From: Christensenellaceae bacterium
GTDB taxonomy: Bacteria; Bacillota; Clostridia; Christensenellales; UBA1242
Assembly: GCA_031260975.1 (NCBI GenBank)
Contig: JAISKJ010000003.1
Span: forward strand, 65,480 to 129,479
Length of the DNA stretch: 64,000 bases
Direction of reading: 5' to 3'
The notes beneath the pieces were generated by a model, which made no database searches, was not told the origin of the DNA, and saw only the letters and a list, made by a program, of their open reading frames with translations. Numbering within the stretch: the stretch's first letter is position 1; every line of letters starts with the position of its first letter. This document shows, in pieces, positions 4,972 through 46,028 of this stretch. The position numbers were made by a program, and so were the translations under genes.

Positions 4972-5001
4972 TGAATGTAAAAGTTATGTTTAGGCATAAC
5001 T
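4972..5001 (+). promoter_or_regulatory. forespore sigma-G/F-like promoter candidate for spoVT
   Basis: TGAATG (4972-4977), 17-nt spacer, CATAACT (4995-5001). This is a partial match to GnATR / CATnnTA. It overlaps the ORF-track start at 4971, which argues for the ATG at 5028. Confidence 0.35.
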
Positions 5002-5027
5002 TTCTTTTTTGCATGCAAACTAACACT

Positions 5028-5522: not shown

Positions 5523-5525
5523 CCT

Positions 5526-7094: not shown

Positions 7095-7183
7095 AATGTA
7101 ACAAAGCATCTGAAAATAATCGGATTTTTTGAATAAAACTTTTTGCTTGGGTAATAATTGAGGCAACAAGGAGAAACATAAAT

Positions 7184-7456
7184 ATGAACAAAAAAGAATT
7201 GGTAAAATCGGCCAGCGCCAAATCGAAGCTTACTCAAAAAGAAACGCTTAATTGTCTCAATGCCATAACTGAGATTATTTATGATACGCTGAAACGCGGC
7301 GAGGCGGTAAGGCTTTTAGGGTTTGGTAAGTTTGAGGTAAGAGGCCGTGCTGAGCGGGTGAGCGTCAATCCGGTCACCAAACAGAAGATGATAATCCCTC
7401 ACAAGCTTGTTCCGTCGTTTAAAACAGGCAAGGCCTTTAAAAGCGCAATAAGATAA
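7184..7456 (+). CDS. hup: DNA-binding protein HU
   Basis: MNKKELV...GFGKFEVRGRAERVSVNPVTKQKMIIP...PSFKTGKAFK is the HU/IHF fold signature. Confidence 0.92.
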   Translation: MNKKELVKSASAKSKLTQKETLNCLNAITEIIYDTLKRGEAVRLLGFGKFEVRGRAERVSVNPVTKQKMIIPHKLVPSFKTGKAFKSAIR

Positions 7457-7461
7457 CAAAA

Positions 7462-7490
7462 AAGACTGACCGTTCGGTCGGTCTTTTTTG
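7462..7490. terminator. bidirectional intrinsic terminator
   Basis: AAAAAAGACTGACCG-TTCG-GTCGGTCTTTTTT, between convergent genes. Confidence 0.75.
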
Positions 7491-7503
7491 ATGCGGATAT
7501 TTA

Positions 7504-7725
7504 TTAGGTTTCGTTCGGCTTTATTCCGGTCATTTTGGTTACCCAATAAGACAGCACTTCAGAGTGGTTCATCTCGTCGCTTATTATCTCCTCGACTTGT
7601 GCTATAAATTCTTTTGGAGCATTGTTACGTTTTGCTTCGTCAATCAGAAGGTAATAGCCTTCAATTGCTTCCTGTTCGCTTTTGTTGTTTTTGGCAATCT
7701 CACTTGCCATTTGTTCAATTGTCAT
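7504..7725 (-). CDS. small helical hypothetical protein (possibly ferritin/rubrerythrin-like)
   Basis: Good SD (AGAGGTG). The EAIEGYY...DEMNHSE motif is reminiscent of ExxH diiron helices. This is a weak assignment. Confidence 0.4.
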   Translation of the reverse strand: MTIEQMASEIAKNNKSEQEAIEGYYLLIDEAKRNNAPKEFIAQVEEIISDEMNHSEVLSYWVTKMTGIKPNET

Positions 7726-7947
7726 AAAATCACCTCTTTTTTGCGTAGTATCTTTGGCATGCGGTTAAGTCTGTGCCTGCAGCTTCAGTGCCCCTTGCGC
7801 GCTGTTTTGTGAAAGTAATATATGCCGGTTGTTAAAAAAATGTGAAATGCACATACTAAACCCTGAAATTTGTCGCAAAATCATTTATTTTGATATACAA
7901 CTTTGTTTAAATCTGATAGAATAGCACAAAAGGTAACCAATTAATTT

Positions 7948-9573
7948 ATGGAAATATTTTTTGGGATAGTAACTTTTTTGGTGGGGCTCGGAGTTATGCT
8001 GTTTGGCGTAAAAATGACCAGCGAGGCCCTGGAGCGCACCACCGGAAGCAAGTTTAGAAATGTAATAACAAAAGCCACAAGAAATCCTTTTGGTGCGGCC
8101 GGTATTGGATTGGGTTTTACCACCATTCTTCAGAGTTCTACTGCCTCTATGGGGCTGTTTGCGGCGCTTTGCAACGCAGGCGTAATAACTCTTATTCAGG
8201 CTGTCGGAATTGTGTTTGGCGTCAATGTGGGTGCAGCCGTTGTGCACGGACTTATTGTTATAGGGTCATTAAAAGTTTTGAAGGTTTTAAGCCTTGTTAT
8301 AATTGTAGGAATGTTTGTGCTTTTATTTTCAAAGTCTATCAAGGTTAAAAACTTTGCTAGGCTGTTTGTCTTTATAGGATTGTTGTTTTTGGGTATTACC
8401 ATAATGTCTGACGGTATGGGCATGCTTAATGATTTGCACTTGTTTGACGGATTTGCTAATTTTATCAGCCATCCTATACTAATATTTCTAACATTTACAG
8501 TTCTTACCTGCCTGCTTCAAACCTCGCTTGGAGCCTTTGCTGTGCTCATAAGCTTTTTGACAGCGGGCATTATATCGGTTGATTTGGCACTTTGGGGTGC
8601 AATCGGTCTTAACATAGGTACTGCTTTGTCATCAATGCTGGTAACGCTGGGCGGAACACTTACTGCAAAGAGAATGGGTATGGTGCATGTGCTGTTTAAT
8701 GTTGTAGGCGCTGTAGTCTTTAGCATAATGCTTGCGTGCGTGCCGCTTTTGGGGACATATATGGAGCAGTGGGTAGGTTCGGCTATGTTTGCGGTGTTGC
8801 TGTTTGATATAATATTTAATATTGTTATAGCCCTTACGCTTATTCCTTTAAGAAAACATGTTACAAATTTGGCAGCGGCTGTGTTTAAGGAGAAGCAGAG
8901 AAGGCATCATCAAAGTGCACTTCCTGCTGTTGCCGAAATTACTGCAGCAACGGCGGTGCCGGTTATGCTAAATAGCCTGATAGATATCTATACCAAACTC
9001 AGCGGGCACTTCTTTAAGAGTGTGGAGTGTGCCTTCAGCGATGATGAAGAAGAAAAGAAGTTTATTGAAGATGATGTTGCAAAAATAAACAGTTACACCT
9101 TTGAAATAGAAAAGACAATAATGAATGTGTCCTCCGGCGTAAGTGAAGGGGATCAGGCCAAACTTTCAAAGATTTTAGATATTGTTCATAAAAACCGAAC
9201 CATTATCAGAAAGATACAAAAGATAATATTTTTTAGCCTTAGAGCAGAAAATCATAAAAAACATTTTACACGGGCGCAAGAAAAGAGTATAAAAGAAATG
9301 ACCGACAAAGTGCTTCTTATAAGTGTAGCTTCGCTTACGGCTCTGCGTATGTTTGACAGCACGGCCGAATTTGACCGAAATGCTTTGATGGTAAGGGTGC
9401 TGGAGCTTGACAGCGATGTTGATAAAATTAAGGCGCAGACCAGAGAGGCGGCAACAGCTGCTCTTAAAAATAAAACTGAGAACGCCGAAAACTTTACTAT
9501 ACACAACAGCATGATAAACGCTATAGATGACATCAGTGAAACGTTTGCGACAATTGCTATGATAGCGTCTTAA
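7948..9573 (+). CDS. Na+/phosphate cotransporter family protein with PhoU-like C-terminal domain
   Basis: Duplicated membrane repeats with ILQSSTASMG / LLQTSLGAF motifs and a helical soluble C-terminus. Confidence 0.8.
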   Translation: MEIFFGIVTFLVGLGVMLFGVKMTSEALERTTGSKFRNVITKATRNPFGAAGIGLGFTTILQSSTASMGLFAALCNAGVITLIQAVGIVFGVNVGAAVVHGLIVIGSLKVLKVLSLVIIVGMFVLLFSKSIKVKNFARLFVFIGLLFLGITIMSDGMGMLNDLHLFDGFANFISHPILIFLTFTVLTCLLQTSLGAFAVLISFLTAGIISVDLALWGAIGLNIGTALSSMLVTLGGTLTAKRMGMVHVLFNVVGAVVFSIMLACVPLLGTYMEQWVGSAMFAVLLFDIIFNIVIALTLIPLRKHVTNLAAAVFKEKQRRHHQSALPAVAEITAATAVPVMLNSLIDIYTKLSGHFFKSVECAFSDDEEEKKFIEDDVAKINSYTFEIEKTIMNVSSGVSEGDQAKLSKILDIVHKNRTIIRKIQKIIFFSLRAENHKKHFTRAQEKSIKEMTDKVLLISVASLTALRMFDSTAEFDRNALMVRVLELDSDVDKIKAQTREAATAALKNKTENAENFTIHNSMINAIDDISETFATIAMIAS

Positions 9574-9634
9574 AAAGTATACAAAAACATAAGTTTTGTA
9601 GATATAATGATATAAAAGAAGAAGGAGAAAAAAT

Positions 9635-10882
9635 ATGAAAACAACCATAAAAGATATCAATGTAAAAGGTAAGACAATACTTTTAAGAGTGGACTTTAAT
9701 GTTCCGCAGGACGAAAAAGGACAGATTATTGACGACAACCGCATAATGGAGAGTCTTGCTACAATAAACTATCTGACCGAACAGGGGGCAAAGGTTATTG
9801 CCTGCTCGCATCTCGGGCGCCCCAACGGAATTGACCCCAAGCTTACGCTCAGACCTGTGGCCGAGAGATTATCTCAGTTGATTAAGGCACCTGTAGTTTT
9901 TGCAACCGACACAGTTGGCAAGGATGCTAAAGAAAAGGCCAAGGCCTTAAAAAGCGGCGAAGTATTGTTGCTTGAAAACCTGAGGTTTAACCCGGGCGAA
10001 GACAAAAATGACCCCAAGTTTGCCAAGGAATTGTCGCTGCTTGCTGACATTTATGTAAACGACGCATTCGGAACAGCACACAGAGAGCATGCCTCAACCT
10101 ATGGTGTAGCAAATCTTCTGCCAAACGCTGTAGGCTTTTTGATGGGCAAAGAAATAAAAGTAATCAACAGTATTCTGAGTGAACCCAAACGCCCCTTTGT
10201 AGCTATTTTGGGTGGGTCTAAAATAAAGGATAAAATTCAGGTTATTGAAAATCTTTTGAGAGTGGTCGACACACTTATTATTGGCGGAGGAATGGCTTAT
10301 ACTTTTATTAAGGCTCAGGGCGGCAGCATCGGAAAGTCGCTTTTAGACGGAACTAATATTGATTTTGCAAAACGTATGCTTGATGAAGCAAAGAAGAAAG
10401 GCGTAAAGGTACTTCTGCCATATGACACTATTGCAGCAAAAGAATTCAGCAACTCAGCTAAGCGCAAAAAGTTTTTGACAGCTGCTATACCTGACGACTA
10501 TCAAGGGCTGGATATCGGACCTAAAACAACAAAAATGTTTATTAAAGAAATTAAGGGCGCTGGAACCATTATATGGAACGGACCCGTTGGGGTTTATGAA
10601 TTTAGCAACTTTGCAAATGGTACTTTAAAAGTGGCCAAAGCTGTAAGCAAATGCAATGGGTTTACCTTTATTGGTGGCGGCGACAGTGCTGCGGCTGTTA
10701 TAAGGCTCGGGTATGCTAAGCGCATAGACCATATTTCAACAGGCGGCGGAGCAAGTCTTATGATGCTTGAGGGAAAGACCCTTCCGGGCGTGGACGTTAT
10801 CAGAGACGTTGAGGACATGATCGTTCCTAAGAAGGCTGCCAAGAAAGCTCCGGCAAAAGCCGCAGCTAAGAAAGCAAAATAA
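9635..10882 (+). CDS. pgk: phosphoglycerate kinase with a Lys/Ala-rich C-terminal tail
   Basis: KGKTILLRVDFNVP..., NLRFNPGE and GGGDSAAAV motifs. Tail is PKKAAKKAPAKAAAKKAK. Confidence 0.95.
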   Translation: MKTTIKDINVKGKTILLRVDFNVPQDEKGQIIDDNRIMESLATINYLTEQGAKVIACSHLGRPNGIDPKLTLRPVAERLSQLIKAPVVFATDTVGKDAKEKAKALKSGEVLLLENLRFNPGEDKNDPKFAKELSLLADIYVNDAFGTAHREHASTYGVANLLPNAVGFLMGKEIKVINSILSEPKRPFVAILGGSKIKDKIQVIENLLRVVDTLIIGGGMAYTFIKAQGGSIGKSLLDGTNIDFAKRMLDEAKKKGVKVLLPYDTIAAKEFSNSAKRKKFLTAAIPDDYQGLDIGPKTTKMFIKEIKGAGTIIWNGPVGVYEFSNFANGTLKVAKAVSKCNGFTFIGGGDSAAAVIRLGYAKRIDHISTGGGASLMMLEGKTLPGVDVIRDVEDMIVPKKAAKKAPAKAAAKKAK

Positions 10883-32262: not shown

Positions 32263-32772
32263 ATGCAACCTTGGATTTGGGCGATTATTATTGCCGTATT
32301 GCTGATTGTTGAATTTACAACAATGGGGCTGGTTTCAATCTGGTTCGCTCTTGGTGCCGTTGTAGGTTTTGTATTATCATTTTTTGGCATCCCATGGTAT
32401 TGGGAGGTTGTTGCAAGCCTTGGAGCGGGGTTTATTTTGCTTGCTTCAACACGAAAGTTTGTGGTGAAGTTTTTGCAGATAAAAGCTGTAAATACAAATG
32501 CTGATAGCATGGTAGGAAAAGAAACGCTACTTTTAGAAGATGTTGATATAGATAAAAAGGGTAGTGTAAGACTTAACGGAACAACCTGGACGGCAGCCGG
32601 TGAAAAGGCAATTGCGCAGGGGGTCAGAGTGAGAGTTGTTAAGCTTGAAGGCAACACTGTTTGGGTTGAAGAAATCATTGAACTCAAGACAGAAGCCAAG
32701 CAAGCTGAACCTGAAAAGCCTGCTGAAATAAATATTAAAACAACAAAAACAAAAAAAATAACCAGCGGGTGA
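32263..32772 (+). CDS. NfeD-family membrane protein
   Basis: Three N-terminal TM helices and a C-terminal OB-like domain (GKETLLLEDVD..GSVRLNGTTWTA......G..V.VV.LEGNT..V), upstream of an SPFH gene. Confidence 0.8.
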   Translation: MQPWIWAIIIAVLLIVEFTTMGLVSIWFALGAVVGFVLSFFGIPWYWEVVASLGAGFILLASTRKFVVKFLQIKAVNTNADSMVGKETLLLEDVDIDKKGSVRLNGTTWTAAGEKAIAQGVRVRVVKLEGNTVWVEEIIELKTEAKQAEPEKPAEINIKTTKTKKITSG

Positions 32773-32798
32773 TATTCCGCAAAAAGGAGAATTAAAAA

Positions 32799-33728
32799 AT
32801 GGGTTGGATTATAGGAATAATTATAGTATTGGTGGTGATTGCTATTATTTTGATAGCATCTATCCGAATTGTTAAACAAAGCACCGCAGTTGTGGTGGAG
32901 CGTCTTGGTGTGTATAAAAGAACCATGCAACCTGGACTTAGATTTTTGGTTCCGTTTATTGACAGGCGTGTCAAGACCATATCTCTTAAAGAAATGGTTG
33001 CTGACTTCAAACCGCAGCCGGTTATAACCAAAGATAACGTAACTATGCAGATTGACACGGTTGTATATTATCAGGTGACTGACCCCAAACTGTTTACGTA
33101 TGGGGTAGACAGACCTATAAGCGCAATTGAAAACCTTACAGCTACTACGCTTAGAAATATTGTTGGTGAGCTGGAACTCGACCAGACACTTACCAGCCGT
33201 GATACCGTAAACGCTCAGATGCGTATAATCATTGACGAAGTTACCGACGCATGGGGTATAAAGGTTAATCGTGTGGAGCTTAAAAACATACTTCCTCCGA
33301 GGGATATTCAGGAAAGCATGGAAAAGCAGATGAGAGCGGAGCGTGAGCGCCGTGAGTCAATTTTGAGAGCTGAAGGAGAGAAGCAAAGTCAGATTTTAGT
33401 GGCCGAAGGTGAAAAGGCTGCAGCGGTTTTAAGAGCCGAGGCTAAGAGAATATCACTTTTGACTGAAGCTGAGGGTCAGGCTGAAGCCATAAGACGTATA
33501 ATTGCAGCAAAACCCGACGCAGCGTATTTGACACTTCAGGGGTTTGAGGCACTGAGACACTTGGCCAACGGAGAGGCTACAAAGATTATTGTGCCAAGCA
33601 ACATTCAGGATGTGGCAGGACTACTGACAAGTATGACAGAAGTGTTAAAATCACCCTCGCCAGAACCATCAAAAAAGGTTGTAGTTGCTGCAAAACCCGC
33701 AGCCAAACAAAGTCCTGCTAAAAAATAA
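32799..33728 (+). CDS. SPFH/band-7 (stomatin/slipin-like) protein with a Lys/Ala/Pro tail
   Basis: IVKQSTAVVVERLGVYKRTMQPGLRFLVPFID...; coiled-coil ERERRESILRAEGEKQS. Tail is KKVVVAAKPAAKQSPAKK. Confidence 0.88.
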   Translation: MGWIIGIIIVLVVIAIILIASIRIVKQSTAVVVERLGVYKRTMQPGLRFLVPFIDRRVKTISLKEMVADFKPQPVITKDNVTMQIDTVVYYQVTDPKLFTYGVDRPISAIENLTATTLRNIVGELELDQTLTSRDTVNAQMRIIIDEVTDAWGIKVNRVELKNILPPRDIQESMEKQMRAERERRESILRAEGEKQSQILVAEGEKAAAVLRAEAKRISLLTEAEGQAEAIRRIIAAKPDAAYLTLQGFEALRHLANGEATKIIVPSNIQDVAGLLTSMTEVLKSPSPEPSKKVVVAAKPAAKQSPAKK

Positions 33729-33776: not shown

Positions 33777-34631
33777 TTAATTGGTTTCAGTAATGTTGCT
33801 CAGTGCGGGAGGCAGCTGATACCAATCAAGACTGTTACGCTCCAAAAATATCTTTTCCATAACCTCGCGGGTTTCAAGCATCAGACTTTCGGCGCTTCTC
33901 AGCTCACCTCCTTCAGTTTTGGGGCTTATGGGTTTGCAAACAGTTAAAACTATGGTAGGTTTTTTGCGTCCTAAAAATTTATTGAATCGTTTGGGTTTTT
34001 TAAAGCTCAGCACAATGGGAACAATAGGTACTTCGGCACGCACTGATATGCTGAATGCGCCCTTTTTAAAAGTTCGCAGCTTGTTGTAATAGGGCCACAT
34101 GCTGCCTTCAGGGAAAATTATCATTGTGCGCCCGATCTTAAGGCCCCTGTCGATATCATCAAAAAACTTAGCTTTGCTTTTGAGGTCAAAGGGTACAGGT
34201 ACGGCATCCATAAGACGAATTAGTCTTCGCACAACGGGAATTTGATATATAGCCGGATTGCAGATATAGAACGGTCGTGTCGGAAAAAGAGCGGAACCCT
34301 GCAAAACGCATTGGTCGAGCACTATGCTGTGATTGCAGCATACAATTTTGCCTTGCTTTTTTAAAGCTCTTAGGTTCTTTTTTCCATAAACCTTTACGCC
34401 GTGCTTTATTTTTACAATCGGCCCCACAATAAATACTGCAAGGCAGTTGAAGCAAAAGGCAAAAAATCGATGCAGGGGTCCGAACTTTAAAAACTTGAAA
34501 TTGGGTGAAAATGCGCACTTTTTTAGAGGAGTCCAATTTGCAACAAGCTCTTCTGCTTCGTTGTCTGAAAATGGTTCGTCCTGAAGTTCAAACGGATTTT
34601 TCTTACCGTACTTCACTTTTTCTTTTTTCAT
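33777..34631 (-). CDS. lysophospholipid (1-acyl-sn-glycerol-3-phosphate-type) acyltransferase
   Basis: HX4D motif in CCNHSIVLD, plus IFPEGS. Start taken as the ATG at 34631; a TTG at 34640 is also possible. Confidence 0.75.
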   Translation of the reverse strand: MKKEKVKYGKKNPFELQDEPFSDNEAEELVANWTPLKKCAFSPNFKFLKFGPLHRFFAFCFNCLAVFIVGPIVKIKHGVKVYGKKNLRALKKQGKIVCCNHSIVLDQCVLQGSALFPTRPFYICNPAIYQIPVVRRLIRLMDAVPVPFDLKSKAKFFDDIDRGLKIGRTMIIFPEGSMWPYYNKLRTFKKGAFSISVRAEVPIVPIVLSFKKPKRFNKFLGRKKPTIVLTVCKPISPKTEGGELRSAESLMLETREVMEKIFLERNSLDWYQLPPALSNITETN

Positions 34632-34961
34632 TATTATCAAATTCCTATATATGTTTTATGATATTATATTCAATTGGCATCCATGCAACTTCATTTGCTA
34701 AAACCGCTTTGATTGCAATAGGAATATATGAGAGCATAAAGAACGGATTTATGTCGCAATCGCCGTTGTAAATATAAGTTCTCCCAGCAGTAGGGCTGTT
34801 AGCAGCACATTCATTTAGATTCTTAAAAAAACGTTGCTTGACTAAGTCAACGAACATAATTATGGTAACTTATATAAGAGTTTTTGTCAATCATTTTTGT
34901 AGAATGTATTTTGACTTTTAGTAACGCCCCTTTTTACTGATTGCATAACTTTGATTTTTTG

Positions 34962-34990
34962 AAACAAAAAAACGGCCCAGGCCGTTTTTA
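34962..34990 (-). terminator. intrinsic terminator after the dehydrogenase gene
   Basis: Minus strand reads AAAAACGGCC-TGG-GCCGTTTTTTT. Confidence 0.8.
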
Positions 34991-34991
34991 T

Positions 34992-36098
34992 TCAGTGACA
35001 GTTGCAATCTCCTTCGCAGGCACATTCCTCAATGTAGTCATTTATATCACCGAATCTGATTTCGTTGGCAGGTAGTTTTTCGGTGGTGAAGAACCCCGGA
35101 GGAGCTGCCATAACCTCGGGTATTCGGTTGATGACTGTGGCGCAGGTAAGTTCGACTGTGGAGGGTCGCTCAATCACAACGCGGGTAGTAGGCTCGCCTT
35201 CGATTGTCCAATCGTTTGCGTCAAACTCAGTTTCGTCATAAACCTTTCCGATACATTCTGTTTCAAGCGTAATGCCTTCTTTGGTAGTTGTAGTCACCAC
35301 TGCGCTCATACCGGTTGCACTGCCCTTGGGAATGGTAATTCCGAGCGTAGTGCTTTTAATATCTTTTTTAGCAATCTGCGGCAGGCATTTTTGAGTCTGG
35401 TTTTTTATGGTCAGCCCCAGCTGACTGCAAAGCCAGCCGTTTACATTCCACATGTAGCTTGGTAAGAATTCACCGTTTTCAATAAGCTTTTGACGTTCTT
35501 TTTCGCTTATGTTGTCGGCGGCGGCAATTTCTTTTTCAAAGTCTTTTAGTGAGAGCCCTGCTCCATGCGCCCGGGCCAAAGCAATTCCATAATCTTCTAC
35601 ATTATAACTGCTTTTGCCTTTTATTTTCTTGATTGTATGTGTAGCACCTGCCAGCACGGTTATTAGATTTCCCCAGAAAACATCCTGATAGCCACTTCCG
35701 CAAAGAGTACAGTTGTTTGCCTGAGCCAGCGTATTGAGCCGTGCGAACAAACCGGGATTGCTGTTTTGTGGAAAGAAACTTTCTTCACAGATGGATATAG
35801 CGTTAACTCCATTTTTGGCGCAAATTTCAAAAGCAGGGTGGACATCTTTAAGCAGGCTCATGGTGGTGATGATTGCAATATCAGGCTGGTTCTTTTTTAA
35901 AAAGTTGTCAAACTCTTTGGCATCCTGAATTTTTACGCCATATTTTTTTTGGCCGTGAATTTCCATTATATCTTTACCTACAACCTTGGGGTCAATATCA
36001 AATCCCCCTACAATCTTTATGCCTTTTTCGGCGGCGTAGCGCATGGTATAGGCGCTCATTTTTCCGCATCCATATTGAACCATAGTGATTTTTTTCAT
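34992..36098 (-). CDS. DapB-fold NAD(P)-dependent dehydrogenase (2,4-diaminopentanoate/amine dehydrogenase-like) with a Cys-rich C-terminal tail
   Basis: N-terminal Rossmann segment ITMVQYGCGKMSAYTMRYAAEKGIKIVGGFD. Length and domain order fit the family. The tail is IEECACEGDCNCH. SD AAGGAG is present. Confidence 0.6.
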   Translation of the reverse strand: MKKITMVQYGCGKMSAYTMRYAAEKGIKIVGGFDIDPKVVGKDIMEIHGQKKYGVKIQDAKEFDNFLKKNQPDIAIITTMSLLKDVHPAFEICAKNGVNAISICEESFFPQNSNPGLFARLNTLAQANNCTLCGSGYQDVFWGNLITVLAGATHTIKKIKGKSSYNVEDYGIALARAHGAGLSLKDFEKEIAAADNISEKERQKLIENGEFLPSYMWNVNGWLCSQLGLTIKNQTQKCLPQIAKKDIKSTTLGITIPKGSATGMSAVVTTTTKEGITLETECIGKVYDETEFDANDWTIEGEPTTRVVIERPSTVELTCATVINRIPEVMAAPPGFFTTEKLPANEIRFGDINDYIEECACEGDCNCH

Positions 36099-36196
36099 AT
36101 TTTTCTCCTTAAATACACCTCAACATATTATTGACGGGTTTATTTATTTAGTATACCACCAAACCCCGTTTTTTTAAAATGTTTTGAAGTCAAAGA

Positions 36197-36226
36197 ATTA
36201 AAAAAATGACGGATATCCGTCATTTT
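36197..36226 (-). terminator. intrinsic terminator ending the five-gene minus-strand operon
   Basis: Stem ATGACGG / CCGTCAT, with an A7 run on the plus strand (a T-run on the minus strand). Confidence 0.8.
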
Positions 36227-37435
36227 TCAGTCTTGCTCAATTTCTTCGGGGATTTCAATTTTGTTTTTATAGTTTTTTAAAATTTCCAGATATTTTTCTA
36301 TCAAGAGCTCGCTCGATTGTTGCCAAGTAATATAGTGGTCTTCACCTGCTTTTTGCGACACTTTTTTTAGAAGCTCTTTGTTTGAGATTGCTTCTTTTAT
36401 TACTCTTGCAATATCTTGGATATCGTCTTCACAAAGGTATCCGTTGACATTATGTTCAACATCATAGCCCGCCATGCTGCCGCGTACAAATACTCCGGCG
36501 GTTTTGTGAGCAGCGGCCTCAATTTTAACCAGGCCAAAATTGTCATAAAGTGACGGAAATAAAAGTAAATCGGCCCGGGCATACAACGCCTTAAAAGTTT
36601 CAAAGTCTTCAACAAAGCCTGTAAAAATTACATCGTTTTCAAGTCCGAGTTTTTTTGCTGTCTTTTTGAGATATTTTTCGTCCATGCCTTCGCCCGCAAC
36701 AAAATATTTAAAGCTCTGTCCGCTGTCTTTAAGAATTTTAAGTGCTTTCATAGTGAAGTCAATTCTTTTCAGCTTCATAAGCCTGCCAACAAACAGAAAT
36801 ACGGTGTCGTCGTCTTTGAGGCCATATTCTTTATTTATTTTTTGTTTGTATTGTTCAATCAGGTCGTCAGAAGCTTTTGGAAGGTTTGTTCCGCGGTCCC
36901 TAAGGATAGTAATATTGTTTTTGACTCCAAAAGACTCTGCCTGCTTTTTTACTCCGCCTGATATAACCAATATTTCGTCAAGCTTGCTCAGACGTTTTCC
37001 AATGTTTTTGATTATAATTTCGGCAAGCGGACCTATAATTTTTCGCATAATAGGTCTGAAGTTGGTGTGAAATGTGGCCACAATGGGAATATTACGTGCT
37101 TTGGCGTAGTTTATCATAAACTTGCACATATTGAAAGGGGAGTGCATATGAATGATATCCCACTTGGTTTCATCAAGTTTACGCTCAAATTCTTTGTCTC
37201 CCACAGGTTTTCCATAATAGCCGCCGTAAAAAGGGAGTTTGATTGCGCGTGAACGTATTATCGGATAAGACTCGGTATCTTTGTAATTTTTGCCCGCTCC
37301 CGGTGCCGCGGCTGCAACATTATGTCCCATTTTTTTCATACATTTAAGATAATTTTGCATGGTGGCTATTACGCCGTCCATCGACGGCAAATACATATCC
37401 ATAGCCATTAGTATGTTAAGTTTTTTGTTTTCCAT
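36227..37435 (-). CDS. GT4-family (GT-B fold) glycosyltransferase
   Basis: N-terminus ILMAMDMYLPSMDGV. C-terminal region has the E..E-type motif FPSLYDNFGLVKIEAAAHKTAGV. SD GGAGGAAAA is present. Confidence 0.8.
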   Translation of the reverse strand: MENKKLNILMAMDMYLPSMDGVIATMQNYLKCMKKMGHNVAAAAPGAGKNYKDTESYPIIRSRAIKLPFYGGYYGKPVGDKEFERKLDETKWDIIHMHSPFNMCKFMINYAKARNIPIVATFHTNFRPIMRKIIGPLAEIIIKNIGKRLSKLDEILVISGGVKKQAESFGVKNNITILRDRGTNLPKASDDLIEQYKQKINKEYGLKDDDTVFLFVGRLMKLKRIDFTMKALKILKDSGQSFKYFVAGEGMDEKYLKKTAKKLGLENDVIFTGFVEDFETFKALYARADLLLFPSLYDNFGLVKIEAAAHKTAGVFVRGSMAGYDVEHNVNGYLCEDDIQDIARVIKEAISNKELLKKVSQKAGEDHYITWQQSSELLIEKYLEILKNYKNKIEIPEEIEQD

Positions 37436-37456
37436 TTTTTTGTTTTCCTCCGCAGG

Positions 37457-38614
37457 TTAGTTTGATTTTTTAATAATTTTTTGAATAATATCTGAAGTCC
37501 CGTGTTCGTTGCTCACAACATGGGTCGTTATATTTAGGTTTATGTTTTTGCAACGTGCCAGAAAATGAGAAGTTTTTGGTTCAATTGAATATTTTTCACA
37601 TGCAAGCTTAATGTTTTTTTCAAGTGTGTCATAATAGAAATAATCATCAAAAAATACGCCTGATTCACCAAGCCGTTTTGAAAAGTTTTTATATATTGCT
37701 TCTAGTTCTTGAGACTCTCGTGCATCTTTGTCATCTGTTGCGATGATTAAAAAACCTGCTGAGCGCAGCTGTTTAAAGCAATTAATAATGTTATCTGTGA
37801 ATTTATCTCCGATTGCTATATTTTTTATGTCTTTGTTGGTCAGCACTTCAGCAGACAGAAAAACTGCCTTTTGAGGGTTGGTGAGACATCGTTTGTTTAC
37901 TACTTTGCTCTCGATATCTTTAAGAGCCGCCGTATATCGCTCAGGTGTGCCCACGTCCTGTATATATTCAGAAGACTCATAACCAAATACTTTGTCGGTG
38001 TTTTGGATATAGAAGTTGATGAAATCGTGCTCCATGCCTACGGGCTTAAGCTCTTTAAAATATTTTAGGGCTTCTTTGTTTATGATAAAAAATCCGAGAT
38101 TGGCTTGATTGAAATAGTCATATGCTCTGGGCTGGTTTTTTTTGTCAAAACCCAGCACGCGTTTGGTTGTTTTATCCAAGATTATAAGGTCGCAGTCGTG
38201 CGGGTGGTTAGTGGGCTGTGTCAGAAGGGTTATAAGCGCGCCTTTCCCCTTATGAAAATCGAGCATCCTTTTAATATCTATATCAAATATTACATCGCCG
38301 TTTGCCACAATAAAATCGCCATCAACTTTATCCTTTAAATAATATAATGCTCCGCCTGAGCTTAGGGGAGTGTCTTCAAGGATATAATTTATTTTAAGGC
38401 CGAACTTTTTTCCGTCGCCAAAATATTCTTCTATTTTTTGGTGCAGGTGACCAACCGAAAAAAAGATTTCGTCCACCCCGTTTTTCTTCATCACGTCAAC
38501 TGCATATTCTAAAATTGGTTTGCCCAGCATTGGGGCCATAGGTTTTGGGATTTCGTCGTGTGTAATTTCTAAAAATCGTGTGCCTTTTCCTCCGGCACTT
38601 ATATATGCTTTCAT
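37457..38614 (-). CDS. sugar-phosphate nucleotidyltransferase fused to a degenerate HAD (GmhB-like) domain
   Basis: N-terminus AGGKGTRF...PKPM. The C-terminal domain aligns with the HAD start but reads KAVFLSAEVL where GmhB-type phosphatases have FLDRDG. Confidence 0.7.
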   Translation of the reverse strand: MKAYISAGGKGTRFLEITHDEIPKPMAPMLGKPILEYAVDVMKKNGVDEIFFSVGHLHQKIEEYFGDGKKFGLKINYILEDTPLSSGGALYYLKDKVDGDFIVANGDVIFDIDIKRMLDFHKGKGALITLLTQPTNHPHDCDLIILDKTTKRVLGFDKKNQPRAYDYFNQANLGFFIINKEALKYFKELKPVGMEHDFINFYIQNTDKVFGYESSEYIQDVGTPERYTAALKDIESKVVNKRCLTNPQKAVFLSAEVLTNKDIKNIAIGDKFTDNIINCFKQLRSAGFLIIATDDKDARESQELEAIYKNFSKRLGESGVFFDDYFYYDTLEKNIKLACEKYSIEPKTSHFLARCKNINLNITTHVVSNEHGTSDIIQKIIKKSN

Positions 38615-38729
38615 AAAGTCTCCTTATCAAAAGTTTTCATCATTGTCAGAGGGCTGCGTGTGCCAAGTTTGCTTGGTCGTGTATACCGCACTGAAAACTT
38701 TTTGGTGTGGATGCCTCCGCCTGATTGGT

Positions 38730-39593
38730 TTAAAAACACTGCGGGTTTTGGGCTTTAATTTTGTCGAATTCGTCGTATATCCAGATATATTGAGGCTGAA
38801 GCTTGCGCATGAAGTCGGTTTCGTCAATCTTAATGCGGTGCCACCATTTTTTGGTGAAAGGGATTTTCCCTTCGCGAAGAGCGCACACATGATGAGCGAT
38901 GCAGCCTTTCCTCCATTTGTAAGGTATGAGTTTTTTACTGATTAATTTGCGTTTTTTGCAGGCGGTATTCATTGCGCTCATATCTATATAACATATATAT
39001 TTTTTGGTGGCCACAAGCTCAAGTGCTCTGTCAAACACACCGTTTTCTCTGATTTTTTTCATGTTTAAAAGCATGACTCCGCTTTGCATATATCTGGTTA
39101 TTCTGAAGTCGTCACGCCTGCCGGCGATTTCTACGTTTGAAATGTCAATATCCCAAAGCTTTTTTATGTCGTCATTCAAAAAAACGTCGGCATCAAGATA
39201 TATTATTTTGTCAGGCACTTCGCTCACAAGATGGGCTAAAAGGCGTACTGACACATAAGCCGAGTATTTATAATATTTATTTTGTATGTTTGGGCCCTTT
39301 AAAAGATATTCTTTCATAAGACCGCTTACGTCAACAGAGCGGAAAACACTCTGGGGGTTTGATTGCTTCAAAATTTTTGTGAGCAGTGCATCCTGCGCCG
39401 GAGTGGTTGAACGTCCTTTGGGGTTATACTCCCTCATTTCTCCTGTGAGATTTATTACGTTGAGGGGCTCTTTGGTATATTTTGCAAGCGATATTACGCT
39501 GAGTAGCTGCTGAACGAAAAACTTATTATCGGTGCAATAGAGTATGTTTATCACATAGACCTCCCAAGGCTTGAGCCTAATAAAGTCTATCAT
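38730..39593 (-). CDS. GT8-family (GT-A fold, LPS-type) glycosyltransferase
   Basis: NILYCTDNKFF..., DxD in YLDADVFLNDD, and ...SGVMLLNMKK. An alternative GTG start at 39554 has a better SD (GGGAGG). Confidence 0.78.
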   Translation of the reverse strand: MIDFIRLKPWEVYVINILYCTDNKFFVQQLLSVISLAKYTKEPLNVINLTGEMREYNPKGRSTTPAQDALLTKILKQSNPQSVFRSVDVSGLMKEYLLKGPNIQNKYYKYSAYVSVRLLAHLVSEVPDKIIYLDADVFLNDDIKKLWDIDISNVEIAGRRDDFRITRYMQSGVMLLNMKKIRENGVFDRALELVATKKYICYIDMSAMNTACKKRKLISKKLIPYKWRKGCIAHHVCALREGKIPFTKKWWHRIKIDETDFMRKLQPQYIWIYDEFDKIKAQNPQCF

Positions 39594-39613
39594 ATTTTAA
39601 GCTTTAGTGTCAA

Positions 39614-40531
39614 TTAAACGGCATGAGACTGTGAAACAAACTCATACGCCGCTTGAAAACTGAAAGAGATTTTTAAGCCTCTTACACAAAATGTGCCGCA
39701 CATCTCGGCGCTGAGGCTTTCGGTTATGGCGTCTTTCATTTTGCCTCCTTCAGCCGGAGCCGGCAGGATGTGACCTTTGGTACTATTTTTAATATCAAAC
39801 TCAATATAGTTTTTTCCTTTTTTGAGTTTTGCCTTAAAGTGTTGCTCACTTTCTTTTGTAATGCTAAGTTTTGCTAAGGTATAGAGCGAAAAATTATACT
39901 GTTTTCCTTTATGAAGAATAATACACAAAAATCCGCGCATCCCCAAAGTAAGCGGATGGGCGTAGGCAAACATTATGCTGAGCTCATTATTCATTCCGTG
40001 CGCCCACACATAGTTTTTGGGAAAGTTGCTTCCAAAATCCTTTTCTATGTATCCTAAAGAATTTACTTTGGTTTTCTGGTTATTTAATGCAATCGTTCCG
40101 CTAACATTGTGTTTTAGTGAAATTACAGCATGGTTGCAACGCATTTTAAGGTATCCGAACGGACCCATCACAGAAGGTGAGTAAATGCTTTTTTTAAATA
40201 AGCTGTGATTTGAAAGCTTTAGATGGGTGCAGAGAGTTATGCCCGCATCTTGTAAGTCTACTGTAATTTGGTTGAGACTGAATATATTTTTTGCTATGGT
40301 GATGGTCATATTTTGCTTGTCAAATTTAAATTCACTTAAATCAAATCTGAAATAATGACTGAACGCCCGGCTTATAAACATTATGAAGCTGTGCGGGTCC
40401 GCCATGTTTTTGCTCACTCCGGCAATAAAAGAAAAAGGATGGTCTCTCGCAGTGCGAAAATACCACCCTTCAAAATAGTCGGTTTTGTTTTTGCCCAAAT
40501 AGTTTTGTGTGTTAAAAGCTTTTTTAAACAT
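39614..40531 (-). CDS. tocopherol-cyclase-family-like protein
   Basis: The N-terminal DYFEGWYFR matches the remembered FFEGWYFR hallmark of tocopherol cyclase (VTE1/PF14249). The start overlaps the upstream stop by 8 nt. Confidence 0.5.
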   Translation of the reverse strand: MFKKAFNTQNYLGKNKTDYFEGWYFRTARDHPFSFIAGVSKNMADPHSFIMFISRAFSHYFRFDLSEFKFDKQNMTITIAKNIFSLNQITVDLQDAGITLCTHLKLSNHSLFKKSIYSPSVMGPFGYLKMRCNHAVISLKHNVSGTIALNNQKTKVNSLGYIEKDFGSNFPKNYVWAHGMNNELSIMFAYAHPLTLGMRGFLCIILHKGKQYNFSLYTLAKLSITKESEQHFKAKLKKGKNYIEFDIKNSTKGHILPAPAEGGKMKDAITESLSAEMCGTFCVRGLKISFSFQAAYEFVSQSHAV

Positions 40532-42017
40532 TGTCTTTTTTCTCCAGATTTATTAAAGCCGGCCCGTTTAGCAGCCGCCCATCATAATCAAACCTCGAAC
40601 CGTGGCATTTGCAGTCCCATGAAAGCTCGTCTTTGTTCCATGTAAGTGCGCAGCCCATATGTGGGCACGCTGCTAAAACACAGTGCAGCCTTCCGTCATC
40701 ATCTCTGTATGCTCCCACGCGATGGCCCTTGACTTTTACTATCGCTCCTTGACCGGGTCCTATGTTTTCAAACTTCTTCCGGTCGGTGTTAAAAACCAAT
40801 TGCGCAAACCCTGAAATGACATCACTCAGATTTTGCGCGGCTTTAATGGGTGCCATAAGCATGCTTGCCCTCTGCGGGCTGAAAATGCTGTCTGATATTT
40901 TACCATCTATCAGGTCTGATATAATCTGTGCCGCTGCAAAAGAGTTGGTAAATCCCCACTTATTAAAGCCCGTTATCACATATACATTATCCCATGATAC
41001 GCTGTATTTGCCTACAAACGGCATCAGGTCAAAGGTCATTACATCTTGAGCGGCAAAACGGGTCATTATGTGATGGGGCATAACTTTGAGGTGCTCTGAC
41101 AAAAACTTTTCCATCTTTTTAAATCTGCTTTCATATTTTCCGGTTCCTGTACGCCCGGCTCCGCCTCCGCACAAAATCCCGTCTTTAACAGGGCGGAATT
41201 CATACCATTCGTCATCAGTGCCTTCATATATGTTATTTAATTTTATTCCGTTATTAAAGGCAATATTACAATTTCGGTGCTGGTATAGCTTTAAAAAATA
41301 AAATCCCGGCATAATGTTTATATATGGGTAGTGACTTGCAATTATCAAATGCTTAAAACCGATTGAACAGCTGTTTACTTCCACATGGTTTTCTTTGGGT
41401 TCAGACTTTACGTGGGAGTTTTCATAAATTTTTCCGCCAAGCTTTTCAAAAGCCTTAGAGAGCCCTGCAATAAACTTGGCTGGGTTCAGATGTGCCTGAT
41501 TTCCGATGGCAAGCTGTTCAATTATGTTAAGAGGCAGCTCGGGTTCAAGTGAGGAAACAAAGGGCTCATTCAGTTGTTTGAAGGCTTCTTTTTCCTGCCG
41601 TATTTGTTTAGCTCCCTTTTCGGTGGCGGCAAACATAGTATAATTGGCCCGGGTATATTCGCAGTCGATTTTGTTTTTCATTATGATTTGCTCAAGCTTT
41701 TGAGCTCCAAGCTTTTGCAGGCGCAAAAACTCGGCAGCGGTTTGGGTCCCGTGCTTTTTTATAAGCCTGAAGTAAATCGGGTCATGAGCAAAGGTGATAA
41801 TGGCGCTTGAGCGGCTGGTTTCACCCGAGCCCACCCGCGCCGCTTCAAGTATACAAACCTTGTGCCCGCGCGACTGCAGCTCATATCCGCACGCAAGCCC
41901 TGCAAGGCCGCCGCCCACAATCACAATGTCATAATCTGCACTTGCCGAAACCGCAGGCCGCTCAGGCATCTGCGGCAATTTAAAATAATTGTTTTCCATA
42001 TTTTTAATTATTAACAT
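40524..42017 (-). CDS. FAD-dependent oxidoreductase with C-terminal Rieske [2Fe-2S] domain (YhfW-like)
   Basis: DYDIVIVGGGLAGLACGYEL (GxGxxG) and Rieske CPHMGC...CKCHGSRF. Confidence 0.85.
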   Translation of the reverse strand: MLIIKNMENNYFKLPQMPERPAVSASADYDIVIVGGGLAGLACGYELQSRGHKVCILEAARVGSGETSRSSAIITFAHDPIYFRLIKKHGTQTAAEFLRLQKLGAQKLEQIIMKNKIDCEYTRANYTMFAATEKGAKQIRQEKEAFKQLNEPFVSSLEPELPLNIIEQLAIGNQAHLNPAKFIAGLSKAFEKLGGKIYENSHVKSEPKENHVEVNSCSIGFKHLIIASHYPYINIMPGFYFLKLYQHRNCNIAFNNGIKLNNIYEGTDDEWYEFRPVKDGILCGGGAGRTGTGKYESRFKKMEKFLSEHLKVMPHHIMTRFAAQDVMTFDLMPFVGKYSVSWDNVYVITGFNKWGFTNSFAAAQIISDLIDGKISDSIFSPQRASMLMAPIKAAQNLSDVISGFAQLVFNTDRKKFENIGPGQGAIVKVKGHRVGAYRDDDGRLHCVLAACPHMGCALTWNKDELSWDCKCHGSRFDYDGRLLNGPALINLEKKDNV

Positions 42018-42085
42018 ATTTCTGGTGTATAAACAAAAATCGTTAGGTAGGCTAACGACTTTTGTTTGCTTAAACTAATTTAAGA

Positions 42086-42218: not shown

Positions 42219-42722
42219 ATGACCCCAAACCAGATAAGAGACTTTAATGATAAGTGCGAAGATTTCTGCGACAAGCATAACTTCGACTATAATTTGTTTG
42301 TTGCAAGAATACTCAAAGAAAATGTAAATGCCTATGGGAAATTTGTGTCCACTCCAATTGAAACATTTGATGCAGGTGCTATATTGGGCGAAGATCGAGT
42401 TAATGAGATAAGAGAAGCTTATGAAGAAGATCTTAAAAATTTTAAGGTAAGAGTGGAGTTAATAAGTAATTGGTTGGGAATGGAAGAGTTGTATGTCGGC
42501 CTCTTCTGGCACATGTATACACCTGAAGGAATAGATAAAATATTTGAAAAAGATTCTGACCATTATAAGCAAGTCCAATCAGACTTTAAAGAAAAAGAAA
42601 CCAAACTAGATACGGATAGTATAAAGGCAGAAAAAGAAAATATTGCTGTTGAATTAATAGGACTTACCAAGTATGAAATACCTGCCCTTAAGGAAGAGTT
42701 GCAAGAAAAAACCTTTAGATAG
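42219..42722 (+). CDS. acidic helical hypothetical protein (cassette gene 1)
   Basis: SD GGAGGT is present. 167 aa, Glu/Asp/Lys-rich, with no motif I recognise. The next gene follows 8 nt downstream. Confidence 0.6.
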   Translation: MTPNQIRDFNDKCEDFCDKHNFDYNLFVARILKENVNAYGKFVSTPIETFDAGAILGEDRVNEIREAYEEDLKNFKVRVELISNWLGMEELYVGLFWHMYTPEGIDKIFEKDSDHYKQVQSDFKEKETKLDTDSIKAEKENIAVELIGLTKYEIPALKEELQEKTFR

Positions 42723-42730
42723 GAGTACAT

Positions 42731-44113
42731 ATGGTAGATTGGAAGAAAGTAGAACCAAGCACGAAAGAAAGCTTTTCTTTGGAAGAGCAGAAAGCCTTGT
42801 TGTCTCTTATTTCTCTGCCCGATAAATATGTGCTGCTGAACCTAATAAAAAAGTATTCCGGAGAGAAAACCTCTCTGCCGATTGTTAACGAAGAAAGCAT
42901 TAAAGATACAAGAACAAGAGTTAATTCAATGAAGAAGAATGACAATTTCCCGACCGAGGATGAAATTAACAATTGGAAAAAGGAAGAAATTAATAAAATT
43001 ATACAAAAGCAGCTGAATGACCCTAATGTTTCCAGACGTTCAAGGCTTACATTAGTTATTGGTTCGGCCGGTGCCGGAAAATCAACTACGAGTGAGCATA
43101 TTTCAAAAGACAAGCGTGCGTTCCATGCAGATGCCGACCACATTAAAAAGCGTATAGCTGAGGATTTTGATTGTGACATTAATCATGATAACATGCATAA
43201 CATAAGTACAGACATAATTAAGGAAGTGATTGCCGCAGCCGCGCCACATAAATTGGATGTTGTATTAGAGAAAATCGGAGAGAAACCGCACAAAATCTAT
43301 AAACAGATTATGGAACTTGAAGCCCTGAAGTATTCTATTGGATTAAACTTGGTTCATGTTTGTGAAGAAATTGCAAGAACAAGAAACAATGACAGAGCAA
43401 ATGAGTTGATGGCTAAAAATGAACCGCCTAGGTTTGTTGAGGATGAATTGCTGAAAGAATTCGGTGAAGGGCCTTTCTTCTCGTATCTTTTTTTGGCAGT
43501 CAGATGCCCGGAAAAATTCTCATATTGCAAAGCATTTAGCAATGAAGGACCGTTGCGTGAACTGCCTATACCGCTTCATACATTATCCGTCAAAGACGGA
43601 AAGATATTGGGACCAGCAAATGACCCATGTGCAAAGAAAGTTGATGAACAAATATCATCCATATGTTTAAAAAGCACCGTTCGGGCACTTAAGTCGCTAA
43701 ATGAAGAGCGGGAAGATGCAAGTATAAAATATTTAACAAGTAAGATGGAAGTATTATGTTCAGACGATGAAAAGGCAAAAAAAGAAGTAAAAGATTCTAT
43801 TGAAAGAATTCGTGTGAAAAAAGATTGTGGTGTGGAGTGTATGCCTGAGGAAGCAAAACTGCTTGACTTATATGACAATGTGCAGACAAATAAGCACGGA
43901 GCGTTAATGCGGATTTATGACCCGCAGAATATTGACGACAGAGAATTGTTAGAGAAAAATGAAGATGGAGGTTTGGCAATAACCTTTGTCTTTGAAAGTG
44001 TTGTAGGCAAGCCCCACAACACAGATAGATATAACGAGCCGTATGAATTGGTAAATGCAACAAAAGACAAAGTTGGCACCATACTAGGCTTAAGTAAAGA
44101 GGTTTCACAATGA
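42731..44113 (+). CDS. zeta-toxin-like P-loop kinase with unassigned N- and C-terminal domains (cassette gene 2)
   Basis: Walker A LVIGSAGAGKST, then FHADADHIKKRI, LDVVLEKIG and IGLNLVHVCEEIARTRNNDR, in the order seen in zeta/AAA_33 kinases. About 100 aa N-terminal and about 190 aa C-terminal are unassigned. Confidence 0.6.
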   Translation: MVDWKKVEPSTKESFSLEEQKALLSLISLPDKYVLLNLIKKYSGEKTSLPIVNEESIKDTRTRVNSMKKNDNFPTEDEINNWKKEEINKIIQKQLNDPNVSRRSRLTLVIGSAGAGKSTTSEHISKDKRAFHADADHIKKRIAEDFDCDINHDNMHNISTDIIKEVIAAAAPHKLDVVLEKIGEKPHKIYKQIMELEALKYSIGLNLVHVCEEIARTRNNDRANELMAKNEPPRFVEDELLKEFGEGPFFSYLFLAVRCPEKFSYCKAFSNEGPLRELPIPLHTLSVKDGKILGPANDPCAKKVDEQISSICLKSTVRALKSLNEEREDASIKYLTSKMEVLCSDDEKAKKEVKDSIERIRVKKDCGVECMPEEAKLLDLYDNVQTNKHGALMRIYDPQNIDDRELLEKNEDGGLAITFVFESVVGKPHNTDRYNEPYELVNATKDKVGTILGLSKEVSQ

Positions 44114-44955
44114 TAGATTTACATATTCATTCCAGCCATTCTGATGGTGATTATGAGGTTAATGAATTAATATCGAAAATTCATTCGGCGGGAATTACCG
44201 TCTTTTCTATAACTGACCATGATGAATTTCGGGCTTGTGTTGAAATATTAAACAATAATCTTGTTCCTCAAGGGATGAAATTTGTAACAGGGATAGAATT
44301 TTCTACAATTCATAATAATAAAAAAATGCATATTCTGGGCTACGGATTTGATATTAAAAACAAACAATTTGTGCAAAGAGTTGCAAGGCTTCGAGAGATG
44401 CGTAAGGAAAGGGTATCTAAACTGCTTGTTTTCTTAAAGCAGGAATTCGGGATTGTAATTGAAGACAAGGAAATAAATAACATATTGAAAGTAAGACCTT
44501 GTATCGGCAAGCCGCATATTGCTCATATACTAATACAAAAAGGTTTGGTGAGTTCAGTTAAAGAGGCATTTGATAAATATTTAAAAAAATTTTCGATGTC
44601 TGAAATGAAAATAAAAGCAGTTGAGGCTATACAAATAATCAAACAAGCCAAGGGCTTTGCTTTTGTTGCTCATCCAAAAGAAATAATGTATGACTATAAT
44701 TTAACCTATAGCCAAATAGATTCTATAATAAGAGAGCTCGCGGCCAAGGGGCTGGATGGTATTGAGGCTTATTATAATACACATACCGAAAAAGACATTA
44801 AGGAATTTCTGCAAATTGCCGATAAATATAATCTTCTGGTTTCTTGCGGAAGTGATTTTCATGGCGAAAAAACTAAACCGAACATAAAGCTGAGTTCGGT
44901 TGGAAAAGAGGGTTTGACAGAAAAAGAAGTAACTCTTATTAATAAATTGAAGTAA
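44110..44955 (+). CDS. PHP-domain phosphoesterase (TrpH/YciV-like; cassette gene 3)
   Basis: MIDLHIHSSHSDGD...SITDHDEF...AHP...GSDFHG. ATGA start/stop overlap with gene 2. Confidence 0.85.
   Translation: MIDLHIHSSHSDGDYEVNELISKIHSAGITVFSITDHDEFRACVEILNNNLVPQGMKFVTGIEFSTIHNNKKMHILGYGFDIKNKQFVQRVARLREMRKERVSKLLVFLKQEFGIVIEDKEINNILKVRPCIGKPHIAHILIQKGLVSSVKEAFDKYLKKFSMSEMKIKAVEAIQIIKQAKGFAFVAHPKEIMYDYNLTYSQIDSIIRELAAKGLDGIEAYYNTHTEKDIKEFLQIADKYNLLVSCGSDFHGEKTKPNIKLSSVGKEGLTEKEVTLINKLK

Positions 44956-45951: not shown

Positions 45952-46028
<77 letters not shown>

Follow-up and report, generated by a model that had tools for sequence, protein, structure and literature searches.

The GDP-D-glycero-alpha-D-manno-heptose pathway (GmhA, HddA, GmhB and HddC) supplies the S-layer glycan of Aneurinibacillus and the capsule of Campylobacter. 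In the synthesis of archaeal hydroxy-glycerol dialkyl glycerol tetraethers (hydroxy-GDGTs), the coding sequences of Ted and Hgs overlap, and a desaturation is followed by a hydration (bioRxiv 10.1101/2025.10.20.683597). YhfW of B. subtilis is a flavin adenine dinucleotide (FAD)-linked oxidoreductase with a C-terminal Rieske 2Fe-2S domain, and its function is not known (PMC7317962). Here we compare these systems with a block of five minus-strand genes in a 64-kb stretch of DNA (the window) from a Christensenellaceae metagenome-assembled genome, which places a YhfW-like gene and a tocopherol-cyclase-like gene ahead of three sugar genes. We consider it likely that the locus represents two independently inherited modules arranged head to tail on the minus strand, and not one five-gene pathway.

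The five open reading frames (ORFs) encode, in 5’ to 3’ order on the minus strand, an FAD-dependent oxidoreductase with a Rieske domain (FAD-Rieske, 40524-42017), a cyclase-like protein (39614-40531), a GT8 glycosyltransferase (38730-39593), a nucleotidyltransferase with a C-terminal HAD part (37457-38614) and a GT4 glycosyltransferase (36227-37435). The first two ORFs, referred to below as module A, overlap by 8 nt; they are followed by gaps of 20, 115 and 21 nt, and the last three ORFs are referred to as module B. The translations contain VGGGLAGL, CPHMGC, CKCHGS, DYFEGWYFR, DADVFLNDD and AGGKGTRF, and window proteins are 100% identical to P0001, P0121 and P0241. An earlier note on this DNA had reported the five genes with this spacing and these motifs, together with a strong terminator closing the block, and all of it was recovered from the sequence. 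The terminator is an intrinsic one that ends module B on the minus strand (36228-36201), with a 12-bp stem, a 4-nt loop and a T-run. The note had also assigned the genes to families; four of the calls passed Pfam thresholds and the fifth, PF14249 for the cyclase-like protein, was sub-threshold.

Distribution of the genes and the boundary between the modules

The earlier note had proposed that the five genes form one operon and pathway, in which a lipid or prenyl-quinol would be oxidised, cyclised and then glycosylated through an NDP-sugar made by the nucleotidyltransferase. The layout is in keeping with this proposal: the genes share a strand, are tightly spaced and end at a single strong terminator with none between them. 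All five proteins are soluble, with no transmembrane helices predicted in any of them, and the block holds no other genes that would make an acceptor. We examined co-conservation by scanning one genome per species, which turned up cyclase-like homologues of 26-37% identity in 69 loci, drawn from Clostridia, Methanobacterium, spirochaetes, Bacteroidota and one Thorarchaeote, and by inspecting a closer set of seven contigs whose cyclase-like homologues were 42-52% identical. Within flanks of up to 10 kb, a GT8, nucleotidyltransferase or GT4 gene lay near the cyclase-like gene in 0/69 of the species-level loci and 0/7 of the closer contigs, and the five genes occurred together in none of about 80 related loci. 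When the neighbours in the 69 loci were clustered all against all, no conserved partner emerged beyond local Methanobacterium synteny, and Pfam searches of the genes around the archaeal and other more distant loci returned housekeeping genes only.

The sugar genes, on the other hand, recurred by themselves. One related contig (L081) carries homologues of the GT8 (84% identity), nucleotidyltransferase (71%) and GT4 (81%) genes in the same order as the window, and upstream of its GT8 gene, where the cyclase-like gene would sit, the DNA is AT-rich and lacks a long ORF over at least 284 nt. A second (L085) has GT8 (62%), GT4 (47%), a GHMP kinase and a triple fusion of nucleotidyltransferase, HAD and SIS domains (47%), and the module A genes are absent from this sugar cassette. 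A metagenome scan with the nucleotidyltransferase recovered two distant loci only (24-25% identity), which were of no use for synteny. Because the sugar genes were never found near the cyclase-like gene and recur alone in L081 and L085, we suggest that the two modules have separate histories. The inference of a single pathway is unsupported because it failed this co-conservation test, which the earlier note had itself set as a condition for refutation; module B is, moreover, orthologous to a self-contained heptose cassette, and a predicted promoter conserved in L081 lies between the modules, ahead of the GT8 gene. One pathway through all five genes is thus an unlikely explanation of the locus.

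Module B probably has its own promoter, as predicted from the DNA at the boundary. A promoter-like site (39584-39613, minus strand) reads TTGACA, 18 nt, TG-n-TAGACT, a 10/12 match with the TG element, and begins one base past the stop codon of the cyclase-like gene (TAA 39616-39614). It is followed by a ribosome-binding site, GGGAGG (39565-39560), and by GTG 39554. The promoter-like site, ribosome-binding site and start codon align with the region ahead of the GT8 gene in L081, and the GT8 homologues of both L081 and L085 begin at the codon equivalent to GTG 39554; their alignments to the longest-ORF product begin at residues 11-14. The upstream alignment with L081 and the equivalent starts in both relatives make a GT8 start at GTG 39554 (274 aa) and a promoter belonging to module B probable, and the longest-ORF start of this gene is probably wrong. 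With a start at GTG 39554, the gap between the cyclase-like and GT8 genes becomes 59 nt and encloses the promoter-like site.

Module A was held together where module B was missing. The FAD-Rieske gene adjoins the cyclase-like gene in five other lineages (L026, L070, L071/72, L073 and L083), of which L026 is the only one among the 69 species-level loci and the other four belong to the closer relatives. Gene order and strand are the same in each, with the FAD-Rieske gene directly upstream, and the flanks are otherwise unrelated except that L073 and L083 share theirs, so these two are not independent. In addition, P0264 (L086) is an 836-aa fusion of FAD, Rieske and cyclase-like parts, which was recovered independently by the FAD-Rieske search and by the cyclase-like profile search. 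The 8-nt overlap, the gene order kept among unrelated flanks and the P0264 fusion together suggest that the two proteins work together. That part of the earlier note, which had the redox and cyclase-like proteins acting jointly, is therefore backed by recurrent adjacency and one fusion. We also considered the 311-aa gene that follows the FAD-Rieske gene in L084 as a cyclase-like candidate and rejected it (hhalign probability 0.3).

Several observations weigh against this two-module interpretation or against the firmness of the pair. P0002, the nearest homologue of the cyclase-like protein, is not part of the synteny counts. The L081 contig breaks off 284 nt ahead of its GT8 gene, so module A could lie farther upstream there. 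We found no terminator between the cyclase-like gene and the GT8 gene, and read-through that places all five genes on one transcript is possible for that reason; the internal promoter, for its part, is a sequence prediction only. As to the pair, P0264 is a single cluster from one 5.3-kb contig, and the fusion could be an assembly or indel artefact. Three close relatives (L074, L075/76 and L077/78) have a solitary cyclase-like gene with no adjacent FAD-Rieske gene. Finally, in L070 a terminator-like hairpin (5525-5543) occupies a 50-nt gap between the genes of the pair, where the window has the 8-nt overlap.

The FAD-Rieske and cyclase-like pair

The first gene of module A (40524-42017, minus strand) encodes an FAD-dependent oxidoreductase of the DAO family with a C-terminal Rieske [2Fe-2S] domain. 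Both Pfam matches were well above threshold (DAO 1.6e-40, Rieske 4.5e-12), and the N-terminal DAO-type FAD domain bears GxGxxG, so the YhfW-like assignment of the earlier note is sound. The protein shares its domain architecture with YhfW, and the comparison is one of architecture; a difference is that no cyclase-like partner has been reported for yhfW. The YhfW-type FAD-Rieske family is uncharacterised. In the Rieske motif CPHMGC...CKCHGS, 4/4 Cys and 2/2 His are invariant across 35 homologues. The window protein also has the extra Cys pair (CxHxGC and CxCHGS boxes) of bc1/b6f-type Rieske proteins, and the best sequence matches of the Rieske part were b6f and bc1 subunits; the box thus appears to be of the quinol-oxidising bc1/b6f type. 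In an AlphaFold2 model (predicted local distance difference test, pLDDT, 89), the FAD domain was nearest to glycine oxidase, sarcosine oxidase and proline dehydrogenase, and its structural neighbours were all C-N oxidising enzymes (E 6e-25 to 1e-18, identity 15-19%).

The upstream control region of module A (42007-42068, minus strand) combines a hairpin with promoter-like elements. The hairpin (42031-42068) is a perfect 16-bp one with an A-run and a T-run on its flanks (fold z = -3.8), and downstream of it we read TTGTTT, 17 nt, TG-n-TAATAA, 8 nt and ATG 41999. The homologue in L070 keeps the same layout, with a hairpin and T-run ahead of the gene. This arrangement suggests a predicted promoter whose -35 element lies inside the T-run and a near-leaderless mRNA. 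Since the upstream layout is common to the window and L070, we propose ATG 41999 (491 aa) as the start of the FAD-Rieske gene together with a near-leaderless mRNA; the NCBI model P0241 uses this start, which also fits the alignment with L070, and the longest-ORF start is probably wrong. The hairpin itself resembles a bidirectional terminator and is located about 14 nt from the longest-ORF start, in the gap that had been described as a divergent promoter region.

The second gene (39614-40531, minus strand) encodes a protein of the tocopherol-cyclase family (PF14249) modelled as an AttH/CrtC-type double beta-barrel. The window protein itself scored 20.6 bits against PF14249, under the cut-off of 26.6, with a partial match at residues 123-263. 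All of its aligned homologues matched the family (32/32, 30-56% identical to the window protein, best 2.5e-29), and most matches in a wider homologue search carried PF14249. The family call of the earlier note, which fell short for the window protein taken singly, holds through these homologues and the confident double-barrel model. The AlphaFold2 model is an all-beta double barrel with a pLDDT of 95.6. Foldseek searches of the PDB matched it to the Fsa2/Phm7/CghA pericyclases, AttH (2ich), kievitone hydratase and 25-phosphosteroid lyase at E 3e-9 to 5e-6, and the probability was 1.00 to 2ich, 7a0q, 7e5t and 9fzn with template modelling (TM) scores of 0.48-0.61, which places the protein with the AttH/CrtC-like barrels. 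No solved structure was matched by the cyclase-like profile at the sequence level. The residues that are invariant among the aligned homologues include FEGWYF (20-25), C132, H134 and Y161-x-E163-K-D165-x-G.

None of the enzymes whose structures are near the barrel uses a cofactor, and all of them work on double bonds in hydrophobic compounds of prenyl, polyketide or steroid type. The best of these matches, the fungal decalin-forming pericyclases Fsa2, Phm7 and CghA (E 3e-9, TM about 0.58), are eukaryotic polyketide enzymes with only 9-11% identity, and because of this the relationship is probably at the level of the fold only. AttH and kievitone hydratase matched the fold at E of about 1e-7. 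The cyclase-like family comprises 2,876 clusters at 50% identity (E<=0.001), and the hosts of its prokaryotic branch are Clostridia, methanogens, spirochaetes, Bacteroidota and Asgard archaea. We found no described function for the prokaryotic tocopherol-cyclase branch in the literature, and nothing relevant on PF14249, or on tocopherol cyclase in connection with Rieske proteins, anaerobes or archaea. Some 425-aa homologues (P0109 and P0366) have about 110 extra N-terminal residues, a region that is annotated as PF01337 (barstar-like) in P0109.

We propose that the two proteins of module A would act consecutively on one shared substrate. The FAD-Rieske protein, a soluble flavoprotein of the DAO family, would dehydrogenate the substrate, and its bc1/b6f-type Rieske cluster would relay the electrons to an acceptor outside the protein, other than O2. 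The cyclase-like protein, also soluble, would then use acid/base catalysis, without a cofactor, to hydrate a C=C or C=N bond in a hydrophobic compound, to eliminate across it or to close a ring there. An alternative is that the substrate is an N-containing and possibly non-lipid metabolite, with an amine being oxidised to an imine and the barrel protein, acting in the manner of a pericyclase or cyclase, performing a cyclization or addition. The neighbours of the FAD domain lend themselves to this idea, as they include glycine, sarcosine and N-methyltryptophan oxidases as well as proline, D-arginine and dimethylglycine dehydrogenases, and so do the top fold matches of the barrel, which are [4+2] pericyclases. 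Identity to these C-N oxidising enzymes is just 15-19%, however, and the DAO family also holds hydroxy-acid and glycerol-3-phosphate dehydrogenases, while the characterised relatives of the barrel fold mostly act on isoprenoid C=C bonds. We regard an amine substrate as possible but doubtful.

The family name of the barrel protein raises the further possibility that module A forms a chromanol, with ring closure on a prenylated quinol as by VTE1/slr1737 and with the Rieske flavoprotein handling the redox state of the quinone/quinol. The window protein resembles VTE1/slr1737 in its membership of PF14249 (through its homologues), its all-beta double barrel and its conserved acidic and aromatic residues, and the Rieske box is of the type found in quinol-oxidising bc1/b6f complexes. 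It differs in that its own PF14249 score is sub-threshold, its host is a non-photosynthetic anaerobe and its surroundings offer no quinone or prenyltransferase context. Its homologues occur in fermentative Clostridia, Methanobacterium, spirochaetes and Asgard archaea; Methanobacterium is not known to have quinones. No quinone or tocopherol pathway genes formed a conserved neighbour family in the 69 loci, where the sampled neighbours were housekeeping genes. A class I S-adenosylmethionine (SAM) methyltransferase gene lies upstream of the pair in L073 (1582-2313) and L083 (5074-5808) and has a UbiE/COQ5-family match that could speak for quinone chemistry; this match is the weaker one, the generic Methyltransf_11 being best, and the two loci are not independent. 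Given these hosts and contexts, a chromanol cyclase role is highly improbable. In the L073/L083 lineage the methyltransferase gene could instead belong to module A, making it a three-gene unit.

In function, the closest parallels to module A are CrtD-CrtC of the carotenoid pathway and Ted-Hgs. In each, an oxidoreductase gene overlaps or abuts a gene whose product is a barrel enzyme that shares the fold class and needs no cofactor. The oxidoreductases are of different kinds, the window partner being a DAO-type flavoprotein with a Rieske domain and not a B12-radical-SAM or CrtI-type desaturase. The barrel protein belongs to PF14249 and not to the AttH family, and the comparison with Hgs is one of fold class. 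The comparison is thus one of analogy and not of membership. Taken to its limit, the analogy would make the pair an undescribed O2-independent tailoring system of anaerobic Firmicutes, in which dehydrogenation is followed by a cofactor-free hydration or cyclization of a membrane isoprenoid or other lipid, as a bacterial counterpart of Ted-Hgs and CrtD-CrtC that in this one lineage became joined to glycosylation of the product. We view that picture as speculative and rather improbable. Module A is nevertheless a conserved, translationally coupled gene pair, uncharacterised but well defined, and of moderate interest.

The sugar genes of module B

The GT8 gene (38730-39593, minus strand, as the longest ORF) encodes a retaining glycosyltransferase with a DxD motif in DADVFLNDD. 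It matched PF01501 at 1.9e-15 (57.6 bits against a cut-off of 24.3), and its nearest solved relative is LgtC. The GT4 gene (36227-37435, minus strand) encodes a retaining glycosyltransferase of the GT-B fold that matched PF00534 (Glycos_transf_1) at 9.2e-34 (116.9 bits) and PF13439 at 8.6e-19. Both glycosyltransferase calls of the earlier note were borne out by these matches. The GT4 protein resembles alpha-monoglucosyl-diacylglycerol (DAG) synthase, BshA and PimA as a full-length GT-B enzyme, and its nearest solved relatives are BshA-type enzymes (4e-15). The best NCBIfam match was alpha-monoglucosyl-DAG synthase (NF049988), at 88.4 bits over residues 8-394, far under the equivalog cut-off of 400; because of this difference the GT4 protein can be assigned to its family and not to an acceptor. 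The GT8 and nucleotidyltransferase genes are separated by 115 nt (38615-38729), compared with 18 nt in L081, and the extra DNA has a weak promoter-like site (38666-38639).

The remaining gene (37457-38614, minus strand) encodes an HddC-like sugar-1-phosphate nucleotidyltransferase (residues 1-245) followed by a relic GmhB-type HAD domain (about 246-385). The nucleotidyltransferase part of the earlier assignment was confirmed by PF00483 (NTP_transferase, 3.9e-26), with mannose-1-phosphate and heptose-1-phosphate guanylyltransferases as best family matches; every alignment-invariant column is kept in the window protein, and the domain looks still active. The HAD part of that assignment stands in a degenerate form. 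No HAD Pfam matched the C-terminal 140 residues even at E<=10, and the domain could be recognised only by alignment to intact fusions; homologues of the protein are overwhelmingly nucleotidyltransferase-HAD (about 430 aa) or nucleotidyltransferase-HAD-SIS (646 aa) fusions. In the window protein FLSAEVL stands in place of FLDRDG, TDDK stands in place of SNQP and the region of motif IV (GDxxxD) is missing, and the HAD motifs are likewise lost in P0122, a 72% identical relative. Judged from its sequence, the phosphatase domain would be a constrained but catalytically dead relic.

We compared the genes with those of L081 for signs of selection. The ratio of nonsynonymous to synonymous substitution rates (dN/dS) was 0.07 for the nucleotidyltransferase domain, 0.21 for the relic domain and 0.05 for GT4, with a range of 0.05-0.12 over the three genes; for GT8, the proportions of nonsynonymous and synonymous differences (pN and pS) were 0.09 and 0.76, the latter being saturated. 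Module B is maintained by purifying selection, and the relic domain is relaxed but not free. These values bear on whether module B might be a decaying and non-functional remnant of a heptose cassette, as would be suggested by the kinase and isomerase missing from the window and by the loss of the HAD catalytic motifs. The three genes are intact, though, with low dN/dS against a 71-84% identical relative that has the same reduced layout; the invariant nucleotidyltransferase residues are all kept, and the promoter and ribosome-binding site are conserved. A non-functional remnant is very unlikely on this evidence.

Module B is unremarkable, a conserved GDP-heptose-type cassette in reduced form. 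The nucleotidyltransferase is homologous to HddC-GmhB(-GmhA) fusions, and L085 has all four activities of the pathway in addition to GT8 and GT4. There, positions 4885-9941 hold GT8, GT4, a GHMP kinase and a single 646-aa HddC-GmhB-GmhA chain, which would amount to a complete GDP-heptose route and two transferases in four genes. The window departs from the pathway in that its 64 kb contain no GHMP kinase (HddA) and no SIS domain (GmhA isomerase), and in the loss of the phosphatase motifs; the sugar activated by the window nucleotidyltransferase is uncertain for these reasons. A literature search on HddC in Gram-positives returned nothing relevant. We propose that the nucleotidyltransferase would activate a hexose- or heptose-1-phosphate supplied from elsewhere. 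The GT8 and GT4 enzymes, both soluble and retaining, would then transfer one or two sugars to a lipid or to another acceptor in the cell envelope. Module B would then be a small glycosylation system on the cytoplasmic face. No flippase or polymerase is present in the block.

Surroundings of the block and significance

The five-gene block lies in the core of the chromosome, with rpsD-rpoA-rplQ on one side and spoIIE-prmC-prfA on the other. PADLOC assigned it no defence-system membership, and no Rfam family matched its leader or intergenic regions. The minus-strand genes from 33777 to 42017 break an otherwise plus-strand region, and the GC skew flattens there. Two of these genes were considered as members of the unit, a PlsC-like gene (33777-34640) and a DapB-like gene (34992-36098), and both were rejected, as each is separated by terminators and neither recurs in related loci. 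The DapB-like gene is a stand-alone minus-strand gene between two terminators; its product is similar to DapB and 2,4-diaminopentanoate dehydrogenase (124 bits against a cut-off of 400), and its C-terminal end, CACEGDCNCH, is rich in Cys. A plus-strand pair of NfeD and SPFH/band-7 genes (32263-33728) immediately precedes the minus-strand block. On the other side, a divergent plus-strand unit (42219-44955) has three genes: one for an unassigned 167-aa protein, one for a P-loop kinase of 460 aa that resembles zeta toxins (PF06414, 1.1e-11) and one for a PHP-domain protein, the last overlapping the kinase gene by 4 nt. In L070 a PHP protein that is 26% identical to that of the window comes after the cyclase-like gene, and the PHP protein may have a weak recurring association with module A. 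A tRNA gene is located at 45955-46028 on the minus strand (Rfam, 66.6 bits).

The failure of the single-pathway proposal is itself informative, as two unrelated modules passed for a five-step pathway because their genes were packed closely on one strand of a single genome. For the FAD-Rieske and cyclase-like proteins, recurrent adjacency and a natural fusion give a concrete two-protein unit, from which a new way of modifying hydrophobic metabolites under anaerobic conditions could emerge.

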